A stretch of 64,000 nt of DNA, from positions 13,150-77,149 of the forward strand of contig JBKHHE010000001.1 of the NCBI GenBank assembly GCA_046539305.1, given 5' to 3'. The DNA is from Candidatus Aenigmatarchaeota archaeon (GTDB taxonomy: Archaea; Aenigmatarchaeota; Aenigmatarchaeia; PWEA01). The notes below the pieces were generated by a model. It was not told the DNA's origin. It saw only the letters and a list, made by a program, of their open reading frames with translations, and searched no databases. Position numbers and translations under genes: made by a program. Shown one piece after another: positions 15,204 to 22,211 of the stretch (position 1 is the first letter of the stretch; every line of letters begins with the position of its first letter).

Positions 15204-16187
15204 TTTTTCTTCCATAGAGAAGTCCAGGTCCAGGAACTTCTCTACCACCCATCTGTTCGTCAGAAAGTGATCCGTAACCTCTGCTACTTTGATCTCTCCG
15301 CCAGCTATAGCGAGAAAGGGCAGGAGCTGGTCCGCGGCGTACCTGTCCACTGTGACTTCTTTGTTCCTCAGGAGGTCTTTCGCGGCCTTCCTCCCAACTT
15401 TTTCAGCAGGCTTCCCTTTCTCTCCGAGGCCGTTTCCTCCGATGAGGGAGTTTTCGGTTTTTAACCAGAGCTGAATGCCTGAGCCGGGGCATTGAGCGTC
15501 GCAATAATTAGCTTTGATTCGTGGTTCCACCTCAAGTTCTTCCCGTAGGGCTTTCCTTGAAGCCTCGGCCTGACGGTCAGCGACATTCGCTTTACTTAGG
15601 TGGTTTGAGGCGTGGGATATACCACCTGCCCCCCTTATCTCACCTCTATCCGTCAGGTCGAACCGCTTCAAATCCGACCCTTTACTCCTGAATATCACCT
15701 CTCCTCCACCCTTAGGGTAGTATCCTCTCCGCTTCAACTCAAGCTCGCAGTCATATCCATGAGCATTGAGAATAGGTAGCAAGATCTTCCTTATGTAGTC
15801 CACGGATGGACTCCACTTTACATCGGTCCCTCCCTTTATCCTTATCTCCATTTTCCTGTCGCAGCGTAGCATCGGGACGAGAAGTGACTGTAGAAGAAGG
15901 GTTACCGAGCCGGCCGTCCCTATGTCCACTGTCATGTCCCGGGGCTGGAAACTCTCGGGAGCGAACTCCACTTCTTCACTGCCTTTGTTCGCGCCCTCGA
16001 CCTCGGCTCCGGAAAGCTCGGCCAGGGTCTCCACGCACTTGACGTGTTGCGGACGAAGTCCTGGAGTCGGCCGGTTCGCCCTTATCCTGTAGATTCTCGT
16101 TGGTTTCCCCGTGTAAACGGACAGGGAAAGTGCTGTCCTGACTATCTGCCCGCCACCTTCTCTGTAGCTCCCATCAACGTCTATCAT
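15186..16187 (-). CDS. rtcA: RNA 3'-terminal phosphate cyclase
   Basis: MIDVDGSYREGGGQIVRTALSLS N-terminus and a length typical of RtcA. Confidence 0.9.
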   Translation of the reverse strand: MIDVDGSYREGGGQIVRTALSLSVYTGKPTRIYRIRANRPTPGLRPQHVKCVETLAELSGAEVEGANKGSEEVEFAPESFQPRDMTVDIGTAGSVTLLLQSLLVPMLRCDRKMEIRIKGGTDVKWSPSVDYIRKILLPILNAHGYDCELELKRRGYYPKGGGEVIFRSKGSDLKRFDLTDRGEIRGAGGISHASNHLSKANVADRQAEASRKALREELEVEPRIKANYCDAQCPGSGIQLWLKTENSLIGGNGLGEKGKPAEKVGRKAAKDLLRNKEVTVDRYAADQLLPFLAIAGGEIKVAEVTDHFLTNRWVVEKFLDLDFSMEEKLIRIS

Positions 16188-17512
16188 CTTTCACCTTGGG
16201 TCGGAAAATTCCCCGTTAGGCATCCCATACAGAGCTCCTCCCTGGGAAGACCTATAGCATCGATCACATCCTGTGGCGAATTATACGTGAGAGAGTCCAG
16301 GTTGAGTTTTTCACATATCTTCTCTACGGATCCGTTGTATCGGTTGTAGATAAGGTTAGACCTCTTGTTCGTGGTTTCTGTATATGGACATGGCTCCGTG
16401 ATGGGAGGGCAACCAATGCGGGCGTGGACCTCCTTTGCCCCACCCTTCTTTTTCAGAGTGTCCCTCAACCTTATCATCTGATTTCCCCTGACTATGGAGT
16501 CCTCCCCCAGAACGAGTTTCTTCCCCTTGGTCGAACTCCTGATAACGGAGAGCTTTTCCTTTGCGACCTGTTCTCTGACTTCGGGATCCGCTGGTATGTA
16601 ACTCCTTTTGGAGAAACGGTTGAGGTAGAAGAAATCCTCGTACGGAATTTTGCTGCCCTGATGATATCCTATAGCGTAGCCTATGCCGGACTGTGGTACC
16701 GGACCTATTTTGTCTCCTTCCACGTCGTCCACCTCAGCAAGACGTCTCCCTGCCCTCCTCCTGACTCCCATAGCTTCCACGTCCTGGATGACTGAGTCGG
16801 GCCTCGCAGTATACATCCACTCAAAAGCACAGTGAGCCCGTCCTCTACCCTCCAGCTGGCCAACCTTTTCCACTCCTTCCTTACCAAGCCTGAGTATTTC
16901 ACCAGGTTCCACGTCCCTGTAATTGTCAAACCCCAGCTCCACAAGGGAAGGGGACTCGGAGGACACCGCGACACCGTCCTCCCTCTTCCCAACGGCGAGT
17001 GGAAGGATTCCCCGAGGATCCCTCGTGGCGTAAAGGAAGCCGTTGTTGAGTATCAGGATGGTGTAAGAGCCTTCTACCTCCTCGCTCATTTTCTTGATAC
17101 CGTCGACCACGTCCTTGCCCTTGGATATAAGTCTGGCAAGGATTTCGGACGTGTTTCCCTTCGCGAAGGATTCACCGGACCTTTTCATTTCGTCTTTGAG
17201 CTCCTTGGAATTAGTTATCCTGCCCGCGAAAGCCAAGGAAAACTTGCCCATCTTTGAAGAAAGCCTCATGAACCCCGTTTTCCCACCGGATACAGAGGCC
17301 AGTCCGTAGTTCCCGGAGAACTCAGCACCCTCGGCACCTGAAAAGGCCTTTTTAACCTCCCCCGCCCTGACATTTTTGGAGGCCTTTGACTTAAATGTAT
17401 CCAGTGCCGAGGACTCTGTACCGCGGTGTTGGAGATGGAACGCTGAATGCAAAAGTGTGTCGTAGCAATCCTTCTCGTAAAGGTAAACTCCGGTAAGTCC
17501 CCCCATATTCAT
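16184..17512 (-). CDS. Amidophosphoribosyltransferase (PurF) homolog lacking the N-terminal nucleophile Cys
   Basis: HLQHRGTESS, HCAFEWMYTARPDS, VPQSGIGYAIGY and LVLGEDSIVRGNQ (PRPP loop) are present. The N-terminus reads MNMGGLTGVY instead of MCGI. TATA CATTTAAATATC lies ~20 nt upstream of ATG 17512. Confidence 0.75.
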   Translation of the reverse strand: MNMGGLTGVYLYEKDCYDTLLHSAFHLQHRGTESSALDTFKSKASKNVRAGEVKKAFSGAEGAEFSGNYGLASVSGGKTGFMRLSSKMGKFSLAFAGRITNSKELKDEMKRSGESFAKGNTSEILARLISKGKDVVDGIKKMSEEVEGSYTILILNNGFLYATRDPRGILPLAVGKREDGVAVSSESPSLVELGFDNYRDVEPGEILRLGKEGVEKVGQLEGRGRAHCAFEWMYTARPDSVIQDVEAMGVRRRAGRRLAEVDDVEGDKIGPVPQSGIGYAIGYHQGSKIPYEDFFYLNRFSKRSYIPADPEVREQVAKEKLSVIRSSTKGKKLVLGEDSIVRGNQMIRLRDTLKKKGGAKEVHARIGCPPITEPCPYTETTNKRSNLIYNRYNGSVEKICEKLNLDSLTYNSPQDVIDAIGLPREELCMGCLTGNFPTQGER

Positions 17513-17617
17513 TAAACGGAACCTCTGATATTTAAATGTCAGACCGGGAATTGTCCACAAGATAATAAAAAAGTATTTATACATGGAAGGAAAGTAAGCC
17601 ATAAAGCGGGGTTGTTT

Positions 17618-19096
17618 ATGGGGGGAATTTTGACCTCTTTCGTGACGTCGCTTGAAATGCGGATAATTCTTACTTTGCTAATAGTTGGGATTGGATTTCT
17701 CGCCATCAAGATAGCCCCGAAGGTCAGGAAGTGGATCAAAAAGAATGCGGCCGAGGGCGATGTAGAGGAGATAAAGGTTTCCAAAACTTCCGGCTCAAGG
17801 GCAGTGGAGGCCGTGATCCTTGCAGTTGCTGTTTCCGTAGCCCTTCTCGTGCTGAACACTCCGGGGGTAGGCAAAGTAGTTGAAGGGTTCGTTTTGGCCC
17901 TCCCAACGATACTCACGGCGCTTTTACTGGTGGCCCTCGGTTTCCTCCTGGTCAACCTAGTGGTCCATGCCTTTGGAAAATTCCTGAAGAGGTTCACAGG
18001 AGAGGAAAGGGCGATGGGCATGACCCCCAAGTTCCGGAAGATGGCCGAGATGGGGGTGCGCGCCTTCCTGTACCTCTTTGTGGTGAGTGTAGGCCTGAGC
18101 TACACCGGAATATCCGAAAGGTTTCTGGAAGGTATGGTCACCGCAAGTTCCTACGCCCTCGTCTTTATTATAGCACTCATTTTCTTCTTTGGATTCAAGG
18201 ACCTGCTTGTTAACTACTCCTCTGGGGTGTATCTCCGGGGCTCCAAGCTTATCAAGTCGGGGAGACGGGTCAAGATAGGCGAAGAGAGGGGAGAAATAAA
18301 GGACATATCGAGGTTTACAACTACAATATCCACGGACTCCGGATACTTCATGCAGATACCCAACTCCGTACTTAAAGACAAGGAGATTCTACTGAAGAGG
18401 AGCGAAGCGGAGGTGGACACGCTTGAAGAGATCCTGGACCACTTCAGTGGTGAAAACAGTTCCCAGGCCGATCTGGCCTCGATGGAAGTCGTTCTGGGCT
18501 TCTTCGGACACGAGGTCTCCAGAGAAGAGCTTGGAAAAGAAGCACCGGAAGATGTAAGCGAGGAGGAAGTTGGGGATATAGTAGAAGAGCTTTCGGGAGG
18601 AAAGGTCAAAACTTCCCGGATACCACTTGAAAGAATAACGAACCTTCAGGACGAACTAAAGGCCTGGCTGAACGACGGTGCCCTGATACTCTTACGGTTC
18701 GACAAGTCCGTGATCTTTCCCGAGACGGAGTCCATAAACTACGTGCTCTGCCTGGCCGTAGAGGGAGACGAGGTACTTGTAGCCGATCCACATGAGGAAT
18801 CAGGAGGAGTCTACTATGTGGATCACGAAGAGTTGCTCTCGGCGATGGAAAAATACGATTCAGAGGCGGGTTACGTGCTGCTTTCCCCCGAGGAAACGAC
18901 AGCTTCATGGAGAATAAAAAACGAGCTTCTATACTCCAAACCCGGCCTCTACGAGGACCTTTCCAAGAGCATGGAGCTTCAGCTTTCAAAGATAATGAGA
19001 AGAGCTAAAACTTCGGACACCGTAACTTCCAGGGCCATGGCCGACTTCGTGGAGAGATGGAGGGAGGAGGAGGACCTCTGGGAGTTCGAGAAATAA
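17618..19096 (+). CDS. MscS-like mechanosensitive channel fused to a C-terminal C39-like (papain-fold) domain lacking the catalytic Cys/His
   Basis: TM helices plus the MscS beta-domain (GRRVKIGEERGEIKDISRFTTTISTDSGYFMQIPNSVL). The tail has C39 motif order: QADLASMEVVLGFFG ... NYVLCLAVEGDEVLVADP. Confidence 0.65.
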   Translation: MGGILTSFVTSLEMRIILTLLIVGIGFLAIKIAPKVRKWIKKNAAEGDVEEIKVSKTSGSRAVEAVILAVAVSVALLVLNTPGVGKVVEGFVLALPTILTALLLVALGFLLVNLVVHAFGKFLKRFTGEERAMGMTPKFRKMAEMGVRAFLYLFVVSVGLSYTGISERFLEGMVTASSYALVFIIALIFFFGFKDLLVNYSSGVYLRGSKLIKSGRRVKIGEERGEIKDISRFTTTISTDSGYFMQIPNSVLKDKEILLKRSEAEVDTLEEILDHFSGENSSQADLASMEVVLGFFGHEVSREELGKEAPEDVSEEEVGDIVEELSGGKVKTSRIPLERITNLQDELKAWLNDGALILLRFDKSVIFPETESINYVLCLAVEGDEVLVADPHEESGGVYYVDHEELLSAMEKYDSEAGYVLLSPEETTASWRIKNELLYSKPGLYEDLSKSMELQLSKIMRRAKTSDTVTSRAMADFVERWREEEDLWEFEK

Positions 19097-19102
19097 ACCT
19101 CA

Positions 19103-19924
19103 ATGAGTCTCATGAGCCTGTTAATTCTGAGCGAGGAAAATGACCTTGAAGAGAAGTTCCAGCCCCACTTTGAAAGGGTTGAACACAGAAAACTCTCCCA
19201 GACAAGAGTTAATCTCATCGACGAAGAGAACGTCTTGGTGGACGGGATGGACGCGAAAAGCTTCGATTCTTTGCTGGTGATTACTGAAAAGGATATAGTG
19301 ATATACCTGAGAGCCCTGCTCGAGATGGTGGAGAAAAACGTCCGGTCTAACTTGGACTCTCTTTCTGCTTACATACTAACGAAAAAGCAGTACCTCTACA
19401 AGGTTTTGAATGAGAAAAACGTAAATACACCAAACGCCGTGTCCTTGGGCTCCAAGAAAGGCCTGAAGGGAATGACCAGCCTGGATTATCCCGTGGTCGC
19501 AAGGAAGTACACGGGTTTCATAAAAAAGGATTCAAACCTTCTGGAAAATAAAGAGGAAGCAGAAAATTTCATGGGCTCACTTGACTACGGCAAAGAAAGT
19601 GTAATACTACAGGAGCTCGCTTACGGAGAGGTCTTCGACTGTCTGGTTATAGGGGACGAAGTAATTAGTATAAAGATGACTGACGAGGGAAGGTGGGATC
19701 TCCAGGAAGGAGAGTGTAATGAAAAATATCACAAGGCACCATCCGATATAAAAGACCTTGTTCAAAAGGCGAGACTTTCCATCGGAGCAAAGGTTTGCAG
19801 GGTGAAGGTAGTTGGAAATAAAGTGGTCAACATGTATTCCCGGCCACACCTGGATCGATTCAAAAACATATCCGGAAAGGACGTGTACAGAAAAACTGCA
19901 GAACTCTTGAAGGGGGAAGAATGA
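19103..19924 (+). CDS. Degenerate RimK-type ATP-grasp paralog (probably non-catalytic)
   Basis: ATP-grasp landmarks are present (LDYPVVARK, VILQELAYGEVFDCLVIGDEV). The Gly-rich loop is absent and the metal-ligand positions read RVKVV...VVNMYS. Confidence 0.55.
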   Translation: MSLMSLLILSEENDLEEKFQPHFERVEHRKLSQTRVNLIDEENVLVDGMDAKSFDSLLVITEKDIVIYLRALLEMVEKNVRSNLDSLSAYILTKKQYLYKVLNEKNVNTPNAVSLGSKKGLKGMTSLDYPVVARKYTGFIKKDSNLLENKEEAENFMGSLDYGKESVILQELAYGEVFDCLVIGDEVISIKMTDEGRWDLQEGECNEKYHKAPSDIKDLVQKARLSIGAKVCRVKVVGNKVVNMYSRPHLDRFKNISGKDVYRKTAELLKGEE

Positions 19925-20811
19925 AGCTCGCTATAGTTTACAACGATGATTTGCCCGTTAACAAACTCATAGAGAAGGCCGAAAAGTATTTCGATAAAGT
20001 TCTTGCGCTTCCTGTGGAAGGTCTCAGGTACGTCTTCGACGAGGAAGGTAACAAGGCTATGTACAAGGATGCGAACCTCTGTGATTTTGACGCCGTCTAT
20101 CTCAGGATCCACGACTTCGATCTCTTCTTCATGGAGCAAATTATCGAAATTTTAAAGGAAAACAACGTTTACATGCAGATGGAACCCGACTCGGGGCTCG
20201 TCGCGTCCAACAAGTTTCTCACGATGATGAGGCTCAGGGAAAACGGTATCCCGGTCGCCGACTCCGTGTACGCACTGTCGCCCGAGGTAGCCGTAGAATC
20301 TACAAAAAGCCTGGGATATCCTGTCGCGGTCAAACTACTGTCCGGCTACGGAGGTAAAGGGGTTATGAGAGCTTCCGAAAAACAGGACCTCAGGCCGTTG
20401 ATGGATACCTTGGAGATGCTCGAGCAGTCCATCTGTCTTCAGGACTTTATAGAGGGGAAAACGAAGAACGTACGAATAGTCGTGGTGGGCGACAAAACGT
20501 TTTCCATGAAGTTTGTACCCGAGGAAGACGAATGGAGAGCCAGCCCCGGCTCGGGAGGAAAGAAGCGCAAGTACGACGCGTCGGAAGACGTGAGAGGAAT
20601 AGCGTTGGAGGCGGCGAAGGTATCCGGTTTCGATCTCTGTGATGTAGACCTGATACTTTCGGAAAAAGGTATTTACGTAGTGGAGATAGACCTCATACAG
20701 GTTACGGACGACGAAGCTTGCGAGCTGACGGGGACCGATCTCAGGGACGAGATAATGTTCTACATACAGGAAAAGGTAATGGACAGAAAATCCGGTCTTG
20801 ACCAGGCTTAG
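19921..20811 (+). CDS. RimK-family ATP-grasp ligase
   Basis: YPVAVKLLSGYGGKGV, LQDFIEGKTKNVRIVVVGD and CDVDLILSEKGIYVVEID. ATGA overlap with the upstream gene. Confidence 0.8.
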   Translation: MKLAIVYNDDLPVNKLIEKAEKYFDKVLALPVEGLRYVFDEEGNKAMYKDANLCDFDAVYLRIHDFDLFFMEQIIEILKENNVYMQMEPDSGLVASNKFLTMMRLRENGIPVADSVYALSPEVAVESTKSLGYPVAVKLLSGYGGKGVMRASEKQDLRPLMDTLEMLEQSICLQDFIEGKTKNVRIVVVGDKTFSMKFVPEEDEWRASPGSGGKKRKYDASEDVRGIALEAAKVSGFDLCDVDLILSEKGIYVVEIDLIQVTDDEACELTGTDLRDEIMFYIQEKVMDRKSGLDQA

Positions 20812-22211
20812 ATTCCAACGTCCTTCCTGTAATCCATGAAGCTGAAGAAAGCCTTTTCTAGGTCCTCGTAAGCCTTCCTCCTAGCTTTTTCAAGGGTTTC
20901 GGCCGTGTTCGTGAAGGTGAGAACCCTCCCGCCCCTGCTCCTTAGAAAATCATTATGAAGATCGGTCCCGTTGTGGTAGACGAAACCGTCCACGTACTTG
21001 CTTATACCTTCTTCACCTATCCTTTTATCCTTCTCCCCCGTCAGAAATATCGGTTGCTTGCTGTAATAATCTCCTGGGTATCCAGCATAGCCAGTCACGG
21101 GCTTCTCGTCTTTCCAGGGTCTTCCGCTTACTGCACAGATGCCCACACAATATTCGTCTTTCCAGTTTATCTCCATGTTTTCCAGGTTGCCCGCGGCCAA
21201 GGAGCTGTAGATCTCGTATATGTCCGACTCCAGTCTCGGCAACCTAGCCTGTGTTTCGGGGTCACCGTCCCGCACGTTTATCTCAAGGACGTATGGCTTC
21301 TTTTCCCCATTCTCCTCCACGATCATCAGGACGAAGTGGAGCACGCCCACGTAGTCCTCTTCGAGGTTCCTGACCGTGGGCACAGCCACCTCCTCCATAA
21401 TCTTTCCCTCCAACTCCTCACTCAGCTCCTGGGGAGAGTAGGCACCCATTCCTCCTGTGTTCGGATTCAAACCGCCGAAGTATTTGTAAACGAAGGAATG
21501 GTCGTCGTCTGAAAACCTCCTCTTGTAGTCACGGGCAGTGCCGAAAGGCTTCACTGTCTCGCCATCGGTTATCACAAAGAAAGATACTTCCTGTCCACAC
21601 AGTCTCTCCTCCACTTCTATCCGTCTCCCGGCTCCGTCGTATTCCTGGTTGAACTCCTTGCTCGCTATCTTGTCTATGGAATCAAGCGTCTCCTCAAGGG
21701 AACTGCAGACGAAGGCGCCTTTTCCAGCGGCGATGCCGTCGGCCTTGGGGACCAGGTCCTTGTCAGGGTTCTCCTCGTAGAACTTTTCGGCCCACTTTTT
21801 TGCTTTCTCCTCGTCCTTGAAATTTCTGTATTCCGGGACAGGAACTCCTATCGAGTCCAGGTAGTCCTTGGCGTCACATTTGCTCGTCTCCAGGAAGGCC
21901 GCCTCCTTGGCAGGTCCGACTACGGGTATATCCGTTTTTTCGTGGAAGGAATCGACCACCCCGACGGACAGCCACCCTTCGGGTCCCGGAACCACGAGAT
22001 CCGCGCCTATGCCCTCCGCCTTCCTTATCAGGTCGGGTATCATCTCTTTTTTTGTCCCTCCCTGCAGCGGTAGCGCCTCGCCGCCGTATTCATGGACTCC
22101 AGCGTTACCTGGGGCCACGTAGACCTTCCCAACTTTCTCGCTCTTCGAAAATGCGTGCGCCATCGCGTTACCCCTTCCACCGCCGTCGATCACAAGCACC
22201 TTCTTTCCCAT
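20808..22211 (-). CDS. purD: Phosphoribosylamine--glycine ligase
   Basis: MGKKVLVIDGGGRGNAMAHAF N-terminus. PurD length and ATP-grasp core. Confidence 0.9.
   Translation of the reverse strand: MGKKVLVIDGGGRGNAMAHAFSKSEKVGKVYVAPGNAGVHEYGGEALPLQGGTKKEMIPDLIRKAEGIGADLVVPGPEGWLSVGVVDSFHEKTDIPVVGPAKEAAFLETSKCDAKDYLDSIGVPVPEYRNFKDEEKAKKWAEKFYEENPDKDLVPKADGIAAGKGAFVCSSLEETLDSIDKIASKEFNQEYDGAGRRIEVEERLCGQEVSFFVITDGETVKPFGTARDYKRRFSDDDHSFVYKYFGGLNPNTGGMGAYSPQELSEELEGKIMEEVAVPTVRNLEEDYVGVLHFVLMIVEENGEKKPYVLEINVRDGDPETQARLPRLESDIYEIYSSLAAGNLENMEINWKDEYCVGICAVSGRPWKDEKPVTGYAGYPGDYYSKQPIFLTGEKDKRIGEEGISKYVDGFVYHNGTDLHNDFLRSRGGRVLTFTNTAETLEKARRKAYEDLEKAFFSFMDYRKDVGI

Follow-up and report, generated by a model that had tools for sequence, protein, structure and literature searches.

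What could link a membrane channel of the mechanosensitive (MscS) type to a peptidase fold and to a pair of ATP-grasp ligases? The question is raised by three adjacent genes, denoted here g1, g2 and g3, in a 64,000-nucleotide (nt) stretch of the genome of the tiny symbiont Candidatus Aenigmatarchaeota archaeon (contig JBKHHE010000001.1 of assembly GCA_046539305.1, positions 13,150 to 77,149; hereinafter the window, to which all coordinates refer). A first-pass annotation of the bare sequence described these genes as an operon encoding an MscS-like channel with an inactivated C39-like peptidase domain, a degenerate RimK-type ligase and an intact one. We find that the trio recurs in several DPANN phyla, that in g1 a papain-fold domain takes the place of the MscS cage, and that this domain, catalytically dead in the window, retains its active site in most of its relatives. 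The explanation that we favor, a tentative one that is slightly more likely to fail than to stand, is that g2 and g3 ligate a glutamate-like residue to an acidic peptide or tail, and that the channel-borne domain binds and, where active, cleaves the product, coupling it to the channel.

The three genes lie on the forward strand and are tightly packed. The g1 gene (17618–19096) encodes 492 amino acids (aa) when read from the ATG at 17618, its frame being open from a TTG at 17612 (494 aa); an NCBI protein from a Candidatus Aenigmatarchaeota metagenome-assembled genome, named ‘mechanosensitive ion channel domain-containing protein’, matches it at 100%, with the same ATG start and the same length of 492 aa. 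The TAA of g1 (19094–19096) is followed after a 6-nt gap by the ATG of g2 (19103–19924; 273 aa), which in turn overlaps g3 (19921–20811; 296 aa) by ATGA at 19921–19924, both junctions being read from the letters. The first-pass annotation was accurate on the coordinates, the gap and the overlap of this operon, and all the peptide strings that it quoted are found in the translations of the three genes.

The membrane part of g1 (17654–18205, forward strand) comprises about five transmembrane (TM) helices; hydropathy and the positive-inside rule give an N-out/C-in orientation. The last of these helices is a pore helix similar to TM3 of MscS, with Asn201 and Gly205 aligned to Asn117 and Gly121 of MscS. 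Escherichia coli MscS (2vv5, residues 62–170) aligns with g1 without gaps from TM2/TM3 through the beta-domain, and the latter (aa 198–255; 18203–18376, forward strand) matches the Pfam family MS_channel_2nd (PF00924; E = 1.6e-7; 31.7 bits, above the gathering threshold (GA) of 20.2). The alignment and the profile match together bear out the MscS-like character proposed for the N-terminal half. Past the beta-domain, a sequence search against the PDB yields no match of g1 to the alpha-beta and beta-barrel cage domains of MscS; beyond aa ~262, a different, papain-fold domain stands in place of the cage. Given the N-out/C-in topology, this tail domain is cytoplasmic, in the same compartment as the ligases, and it is positioned at the inner mouth of the g1 pore.

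Taken alone, the tail of the window protein is invisible to sequence comparison: it has no Pfam match at E ≤ 0.01 (only the ‘C39-like’ DUF3335 at E = 0.27) and retrieves nothing from the PDB by direct sequence search, so that its assignment rests on homologs and a structural model. An AlphaFold2 (AF2) monomer of full-length g1 built from 4 sequences was poor (pLDDT 51), and a tail-only model built on 33 sequences (pLDDT 91.5; pTM 0.88) was used. In a Foldseek search with this model, the Nostoc phytochelatin-synthase-like protein Alr0975 takes ranks 1–9 (E = 1.3e-6; TM-scores 0.56/0.64), followed by PeiR, the C39 peptidase domains of PCAT1 (E = 1.5e-4), ComA (3e-4) and LahT (1e-3), with TM-target values of 0.68–0.71, the C39-like domain (CLD) of HlyB (3zua; E = 4e-3, TM-target 0.61), which is matched here by a domain with a degenerate catalytic site, AvrRpt2, and BtrH-like acyltransferases. 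The comparison with C39 and CLD structures that had been suggested for the tail thus returns a papain fold, not an unrelated one. A profile of 36 tails run against the PDB with hmmsearch retrieves Alr0975 as well (E = 9e-5), the match spanning the entire domain with its Gln, Cys, His and Asp columns. The model, the Foldseek matches and the profile delimit a papain-fold peptidase-like core (aa 262–436; 18395–18919, forward strand), which is followed by a helical C-terminal extension (18920–19093, forward strand) whose helices are modelled with high confidence and which has the conserved pattern WR...YS..LY..LSKS.E.QL.K..R...W.

The homologs of the tail are less cryptic. When a four-tail profile was run against 1.84 billion representative proteins, it matched 66 of them, nearly all of 480–545 aa with the tail at ~250–500, that is, the same fusion. 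The homolog P0002, which is 42% identical to the window protein and has the catalytic motifs SYCGPAS...HYVLC, matches Peptidase_C39_2 at 5.7e-10 and Peptidase_C39 at 9e-8. Among 33 family tails, C39_2 is detected in 21, C39 in 17, Phytochelatin in 13 (best E = 5e-7) and DUF3335 in 4. The C39, C39_2, phytochelatin synthase (PCS) and BtrH_N families form one cluster of papain-like enzymes (PMC10318531), and it is exactly to this cluster that the tail of g1 belongs. The original C39-like assignment therefore holds at the level of the clan, whereas the nearest relative of solved structure is the glutathione-cleaving Alr0975, ahead of the bacteriocin-type C39 domains and the CLD.

Family alignments and column tallies indicate how far the active site has decayed. 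At the nucleophile motif, for which the family consensus is Q-x-P-S-Y-C-G-P-A-S, the window protein is degenerate (aa 280–286; 18449–18469, forward strand), with Glu280 in the column of the oxyanion Gln and Ala286 in that of the Cys. In the second part of the site (18737–18787, forward strand), Asn376 occupies the catalytic His column (NYVLC against HY.LC in the family), and Asp392, the third residue of the triad within a conserved D-P, is retained. Leu had initially been placed at the nucleophile position and Asn at that of the His; the Asn is correct, whereas the Cys column holds Ala286 and not Leu288. Across 52 family representatives, the Cys column contains Cys in 32, Ser in 10 and other residues in 10; His is present in 32 and Asp in 50, and the full Gln/Cys/His/Asp set is retained in 32. 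Among the listed sequences of this alignment, Cys and His are kept or lost as a pair, and the replacement pairs in the dead forms differ (A/N, S/N, Q/S, R/S, S/G, S/E, M/R and S/R), which points to repeated, independent loss of the catalytic dyad. The remainder of the domain is conserved nonetheless: E348, W352, D392, G399, R434 and Y447 vary hardly or not at all across the 52 sequences, suggesting a role that does not require catalysis and is common to all members. The peptidase site is intact in all 80 genome loci found by scanning with the active-site pattern (L011–L090), a set that is biased toward active peptidases by construction, and the ratio of active to dead forms is accordingly taken only from the unbiased search of representatives. 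The domain is dead in this genome, as first claimed, and this is the minority state of the family. Judging from the alignment, the ancestral as well as the majority state is an active cysteine peptidase or transpeptidase, from which the dead binder was repeatedly derived; by analogy with the HlyB CLD, only binding or regulation could remain in the window protein.

The product of g2 matches the Pfam RimK profile at E = 3.7e-4 and 20.6 bits, just below the GA of 21. When it is aligned to E. coli RimK and LysX, the position of the Gly loop reads TGFIKKDS, and Lys235, Asn243 and Tyr245 fill the three Mg-ligand columns. The Gly-rich loop, the Arg of DIR, the RSN..GG motif, all three Mg ligands and both catalytic Arg residues are missing in each of the 44 loci compared, and in 30 of these the column of the Mg-ligand Asp contains Arg or Lys. 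This tally confirms the original description of g2 as a degenerate ATP-grasp protein without a Gly loop and excludes a complete active site hidden by misalignment. The g2 and g3 families are nevertheless co-linear (hhalign: 99.9%, E = 4e-37, 275 columns), and the g2 profile matches Pseudomonas RimK (7qyr) at E = 1.3e-14 over residues 1–288 and E. coli RimK at 5e-11; in addition, g2 forms a discrete family, with 28 clusters at ≥182 bits and the next one at 51 bits. Being inactivated at every locus and set apart in this manner, g2 is a full-length RimK paralog and an ancient, maintained pseudo-ligase, not a product of recent decay.

The companion gene g3, in contrast, is equipped for catalysis. 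It matches Pfam RimK at E = 3e-24 and the RimK and LysX entries of the PDB at 1e-14, and it keeps the Lys, the GYGGKGV loop, QDF, both Arg residues, GG, Asp243 and Glu255. The view of g3 as an intact RimK-type ligase is upheld in this respect, yet the enzyme is not fully canonical: Ser208 replaces the Asn of the RimK motif RSN, and Asp257 replaces the third Mg ligand, an Asn. Across 43 loci, the landmark columns are invariant save for these two; the Ser/Asp pair is confined to five loci, the window, L005, L007, L009 and L010 (L007 and L009 being the same genes). The clade with Ser208/Asp257 is also the one with the His-to-Asn change in the peptidase domain and with the shortest g1 tails, and other dead-peptidase lineages (L002, L003) keep Asn/Asn in g3; the substitutions may reflect either co-adaptation or shared ancestry. 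With respect to known ligases, g3 scores 121.6 bits against the 143.4-bit cutoff of TIGR00768 (rimK_fam) and falls below the cutoffs of the NCBIfam equivalogs RimK (66.9 against 331), LysX (90.6 against 275.6), MptN (94.1 against 350) and CofF (39.5 against 300), and is a distinct clade of the RimK superfamily. A role in LysX/LysW-type lysine or arginine biosynthesis was considered and rejected: the locus listings contain no neighbors of the LysW/Y/Z/J/K type, and the LysX score of g3 falls far short of the threshold.

Context look-ups combined with a scan using hidden Markov models show that the linkage of the three genes is widespread. The g1-g2-g3 trio is present in 46 of the 90 loci fetched (about 43 distinct ones, given a few duplicate contigs), g1 is found alone in 37, and 7 are too short to judge; in look-ups that started from a g2 homolog, g2 is located directly downstream of g1 in six of seven distinct contexts. 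The lineages named for the 80 genome loci are Aenigmatarchaeota, Nanohaloarchaeota, Woesearchaeota, Iainarchaeota/Diapherotrites and Nanoarchaeota, and the loci include complete genomes of Nanohaloarchaeota (CP046106 and NZ_CP180230). The flanks of the trio, which is carried by several DPANN phyla, are of at least four kinds: the purF-like gene and purD in the window, Hsp20-RTC in L005 and L010, S6e-eIF2gamma upstream with PIN_9 downstream in about 25 loci, where TrkH and a canonical MscS are often close by, and IMPDH upstream in L047/L091, L055, L056, L063 and L092. Such recurrence with differing flanks argues that the arrangement is not due to chance, and the first-pass proposal that a neighborhood survey might find the fusion together with paired ATP-grasp genes is borne out by these trio loci. 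Many carriers are halophiles, and the trio is found in non-halophilic groundwater lineages as well. The solo g1 loci are mostly of the Woesearchaeota type and have no conserved neighbor in common; in two of them, a single canonical RimK gene is convergent to g1.

In some lineages the set of genes is altered. In the IMPDH-flanked lineage, a gene of the N-formylglutamate amidohydrolase (FGase) family (PF05013) is the fourth same-strand gene, directly after g3 (L047/L091:6751–7470, L092:6742–7467, L055, L063 and L071), and is often followed by an M29 aminopeptidase gene on the opposite strand. In L093 (265–3386), a divergent g2-like/g3 pair without g1 is followed by a gene for a carboxypeptidase of the MATCAP family (PF08014), the family of tubulin-detyrosinating carboxypeptidases, and is preceded by a called open reading frame (ORF) of 33 aa (L093:92–193), MVLVKQKQTKINKAPQQTKENQNAQKSKQYSEY, that ends in ..SEY, with Glu-Tyr at the C-terminus. 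Each of the variants thus has, beside its ligase pair, a hydrolase for Glu-amide or C-terminal bonds, be it the C39/PCS-like domain, the FGase or, in place of g1, the MATCAP protein, and this recurring company fits an antagonism between ligase and hydrolase like that of RimK and RimB.

Under the explanation favored here, g2 and g3 would form a heteromeric amino-acid ligase, as paralogy, translational coupling and the oligomeric state of RimK suggest. The acceptor of this ligase would be a carboxylate, either of a peptide or of a C-terminal tail, acidic in both cases, and the residue attached would be Glu or one like it; the papain-fold domain of g1 would recognize the same acidic product. In most lineages, the domain would also cleave that product, opposing the ligase by hydrolysis in the way that RimB opposes RimK. 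Either through ligand-controlled gating or through release of the liberated amino acid via the pore, the channel would be coupled to the product, to its level or its state; with Glu280, Ala286 and Asn376 in this genome, only the binding or regulatory part of the cycle would remain. Release or sensing of an osmolyte-like peptide by the putative channel, as first envisaged, is plausible in this framework.

Analogous systems are known. RimK synthesizes free poly-alpha-Glu, which RimB and RloA cleave, so that ligase and protease are antagonists acting on poly-Glu, and the RloABC system of Pseudomonas aeruginosa combines a 7TM protein with an inactive transglutaminase, a RimK-like ATP-grasp protein and a poly-Glu-cleaving protease and has a hypo-osmotic phenotype (PMC11957051). 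The dipeptide NAGGN, an osmolyte, is made by a non-ribosomal ligase (PMC8070244).

Several observations weigh against this explanation. The pore helix of g1 has bulky Phe and Ile where MscS has Gly and Ala, so its conduction properties may differ from those of MscS. The case for a g2/g3 heteromer consists of paralogy and translational coupling, the g3 proteins of the window clade carry two substitutions at conserved active-site columns, and g3 scores below the equivalog cutoffs of RimK, LysX, MptN and CofF, so that the choice of Glu as the added residue is tentative. Finally, in the 37 solo loci g1 has a complete triad and no ligase pair beside it, which implies that the peptidase-channel has a function of its own, independent of adjacent ligases.

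The strongest rival, an unlikely one in our assessment, makes g1 its own substrate: the RimK-type pair would extend the acidic tail of g1, the papain-fold domain would trim it in cis or cut it at Gly-Gly, and the behavior of the channel would be tuned thereby. An unexpected correlation in the C-terminal tails of g1 bears on this rival. Past the last conserved Trp, the median length is 20 aa in trio-linked proteins (n = 43) and 5 aa in solo ones (n = 41; Mann-Whitney p = 8e-12, without a correction for phylogeny); the former have disordered tails of 14–37 aa, whereas the latter end 2–11 residues after the Trp. The tails of halophiles are acidic, often contain GG and share semi-conserved ends, ..LDEFT.. 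or T-x-D-x-x-x (as in ...KKLDEFTDTDE and ...GGLNEFVDDN); 11 of the 43 trio-linked tails end in Glu, an acceptor of the RimK/LysX type, and an Iainarchaeota-like group has Lys/Ser/Glu-rich tails of 24–37 aa. These features suggest a substrate or docking site for g2/g3, and both RimK and LysX act on protein C-termini. The coupling of g2/g3 to a MATCAP-family carboxypeptidase and the ..SEY mini-ORF in L093 points in the same direction. Against self-modification, the window protein stops four residues past the Trp (EFEK, 19082–19093), the shortest end among trio-linked homologs, and its closest relative, L005, is almost tailless as well (DFEK), yet both keep g2 and an equipped g3. The termini are heterogeneous (K, E, N, R and Q), and the dead-peptidase lineages L002 and P0014 retain both the GG and the DEFT motif, so that cleavage is not what conserves it. 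The correlation between tail and trio may be a lineage effect, and the solo proteins have an active peptidase with neither tail nor ligase. The near-loss of the tail in the window clade, with the equipped ligase kept, makes a diffusible peptide or another protein a more likely product of the ligase in this genome than the tail of g1 itself.

A broader version of the same idea is less likely again. The g1 tail or, where g1 is absent, a mini-peptide such as that encoded by the 33-aa ORF of L093 would be the substrate of a tail code on the channel; the RimK-type pair would write amino acids onto it, with the dead paralog g2 as a tail-binding adaptor, and the papain-fold domain, the MATCAP protein or the FGase would be the eraser. 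Like the self-modification of g1, this would be a prokaryotic counterpart of the cycle of tubulin, on the tails of which ATP-grasp ligases of the TTL/TTLL type are opposed by the cysteine protease vasohibin and the carboxypeptidase MATCAP. The copy in the window would then be a derived version from which both the eraser activity and the tail have been lost.

A third possibility, improbable in our view, is a glutamate buffer with a valve: g2/g3 would polymerize Glu into an osmotically inert store, the peptidase would depolymerize it, and the MscS-like pore would vent Glu, the dead domain of this genome merely sensing the polymer. Export of glutamate by a channel of the MscS family is established for MscCG of Corynebacterium. 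The production of free poly-alpha-Glu by RimK, its cleavage by RimB and RloA, and the osmotic phenotype of Rlo (PMC11957051) are favorable to this scheme, as are the FGase, a member of the N-acyl-glutamate amidohydrolase family, as a fourth gene in one lineage, and the abundance of halophiles among the carriers, with TrkH and canonical MscS nearby. The scheme is, however, a special case of the favored explanation that requires more steps, and the trio is also carried by the non-halophilic groundwater lineages. To our knowledge, there is no precedent for cleavage of poly-Glu by a papain-fold domain of the C39/PCS-like type.

Still more improbable is peptide export of the PCAT type, in which the C39 domain would remove a double-glycine leader from a ribosomal peptide, possibly modified by the ATP-grasp enzymes in a graspetide-like manner, and pass the peptide to the pore. 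The significant structural matches to the C39 domains of PCAT1, ComA and LahT (TM-target about 0.7), the Pfam C39 or C39_2 matches of most family members and the location of the peptidase at the cytoplasmic mouth of the pore, as in PCATs, accord with this possibility, and no protein family is associated more often with the ATP-grasp loci of graspetides than the C39-ABC transporters (PMC8939145). Yet in the trio neighborhoods, where genes overlap or are a few nt apart, there is no conserved precursor-peptide ORF and no space for one. The matches of g3 are to RimK, MptN and LysX (1e-35 to 1e-26), with no graspetide-ligase model among the best 25 NCBIfam matches; the best structural and profile match of the domain is phytochelatin-synthase-like and not a PCAT domain; and the window copy of the peptidase is dead. 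MscS channels lack an energy source that could drive transport, and we know of none that exports peptides.

Least probable of all is the absence of any functional link, with g1 and the ligase pair as mere neighbors or as a module on its way to loss in this genome: the 37 solo g1 loci and the combination of a dead dyad, Ser208/Asp257 in g3 and the shortest tail in the window clade would agree with this, but the overlapping or near-overlapping genes have stayed together through at least four flank contexts in several DPANN phyla, and all three ORFs of the window are intact and conserved in L005, L007 and L010, with identities of 42–59% for g1, 50–67% for g2 and 64–77% for g3 and with the family-invariant residues kept. 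A role in anti-phage defense was likewise rejected, g1–g3 having no PADLOC match at E ≤ 0.01.

The surroundings of the trio deserve a brief description. In the window, the forward-strand trio is enclosed by two reverse-strand genes, the purF-like gene (16184–17602) upstream of g1 and purD (20808–22211) downstream of g3. The start of the purF-like gene is probably Met33 (17506), judging from the alignment to Bacillus subtilis PurF, which leaves an AT-rich divergent spacer of 109 bp (17509–17617) before g1; within it, a TATA-like TTTATA (17576–17581), 37 nt upstream of the ATG of g1, is a plausible archaeal promoter. The purF-like protein has Gly at the position of the N-terminal nucleophile Cys1 (MGGLTGV against CGVFGIW in B. 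subtilis PurF) and scores 274.6 with TIGR01134, under the cutoff of 350; its four Fe-S cluster Cys residues and its PRTase part align well with PurF, and it may be a glutaminase-dead PurF that is ammonia-dependent or re-purposed. The remainder of the window contains housekeeping genes, among them those for SerRS, ArgRS, TFIIB, the CCA-adding enzyme and Trm1; ARAGORN detects no tRNA genes in the whole 64 kb.

In L007, L012, L014, L016, L018–L030, L050, L058, L060 and L088, which belong to Nanohaloarchaeota and halophilic Aenigmatarchaeota, the trio is located between S6e-eIF2gamma and PIN_9(-RpoE-Spt4-S24e) and looks like an insertion into this conserved archaeal string of translation and transcription genes. 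Just upstream, on the opposite strand, these loci have TrkH (in L007 also TrkA) and, in some cases, a canonical MscS of 283 aa. A CDC123-like link of g2 to eIF2gamma was rejected: g2 matches RimK only, and the adjacency to eIF2gamma, which the insertion explains, does not exist in the window. Past the 3' end of the trio, L001:6792–7835(-), L003:3430–4359(-), L011:9261–11254(-) and about 30 other halophile loci encode, on the opposite strand, a conserved protein of ~347 aa with a MobB/CbiA-like P-loop and an uncharacterized N-terminal domain, a third ATP-grasp protein (YheCD/TTL-like, ~310 aa), or both; the window has neither gene.

The interest of the module extends beyond this locus. MscS channels are the standard example of an osmotic safety valve, and there is still debate about the way in which the interior of the cell is sensed by their cytoplasmic domains; a family in which the cage is exchanged for a peptidase fold and which, in dozens of DPANN genomes, is tied to a ligase and a pseudo-ligase offers a natural experiment in how a peptide or a tail might control an MscS pore chemically. 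The repeated, independent loss of the dyad in an otherwise conserved domain is a clean case of conversion of an enzyme into a binder. Retention of the module in the tiny genomes of Aenigmatarchaeota, Nanohaloarchaeota and Iainarchaeota/Diapherotrites-like lineages suggests that it is likely to be important for their biology. It would also be a second, archaeal case of an ATP-grasp ligase set against a papain-fold hydrolase at a membrane protein, at a time when the bacterial Rlo system has just been linked to osmotic stress; and, if the tail code were real, archaea would mark a mechanosensitive channel by a mechanism that parallels the tyrosination and glutamylation of tubulin. Literature searches for a fusion of MscS with a peptidase, for the trio, and for RimK in Nanohaloarchaeota found no description, and the names given by NCBI are generic; the statement of the first-pass annotation that it knew of no characterized MscS/C39-like fusion agrees with this outcome.

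Among the closest known systems is Rlo. In 2009, Iyer et al. reportedly predicted, by comparative genomics, systems that combine a 7TM protein bearing an inactive transglutaminase with RimK-like ATP-grasp proteins. Like Rlo, the module encodes a cytoplasmic RimK-like ATP-grasp ligase in an operon with a polytopic membrane protein that bears a papain-superfamily domain, inactive in this genome. The membrane part, however, is an MscS-like channel instead of 7TM, and the domain is C39/PCS-like, cytoplasmic and active in most members, whereas that of Rlo is transglutaminase-like and periplasmic; none of g1–g3 has a Pfam match to 7TM_transglut, Transglut_i_TM or RLAN at E ≤ 1. To systems of the Rlo type belong a poly-Glu-cutting hydrolase and an osmotic phenotype. 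The present module lacks a retropepsin, no gene for which is present in any of the locus listings, has an additional pseudo-ligase, and is carried by DPANN archaea and not by Proteobacteria. With RimK/RimB the module shares the RimK-family affiliation of g2 and g3 and the pairing of a ligase with an antagonistic peptidase, but g3 is far below the 331-bit RimK cutoff (66.9 bits) and also below that of rimK_fam, bS6 does not occur in archaea, the peptidase has a papain fold and is borne by a channel, where RimB is a soluble retropepsin, and a conserved dead paralog belongs to the system.

Proteins of similar domain architecture differ as well. PCAT1, ComA and LahT as well as HlyB, with its CLD, have a C39-type domain, in live and dead forms, joined to the cytoplasmic face of a membrane conduit; theirs, however, is N-terminal to an ABC exporter, whereas the domain of the module is C-terminal to an MscS-type channel, has a helical extension of ~60 aa, is closer to Alr0975 and has no gene with a GG leader in its conserved neighborhood. 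Alr0975 itself (NsPCS, peptidase family C83) is the best structural match (about 195 aligned columns); it cleaves glutathione, a small peptide that contains Glu and is the product of ATP-grasp enzymes. Its identity to the g1 domain is 16–18%, it is soluble, its Gln, Cys and His have no counterparts in the window copy, and nothing observed here ties the module to glutathione. Within the MscS family, some channels have acquired sensor domains at the C-terminus, for example the cyclic-nucleotide-binding bCNG channels, in which a cytoplasmic ligand-type domain is likewise appended after the region of the MscS pore and beta-domain; in the module, that domain is a peptidase fold and replaces the alpha-beta and beta-barrel domains instead of following them. 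The module thus shares its logic with Rlo, RimK/RimB, the PCAT/HlyB CLD proteins and NsPCS, and departs from each of them in a defining feature.

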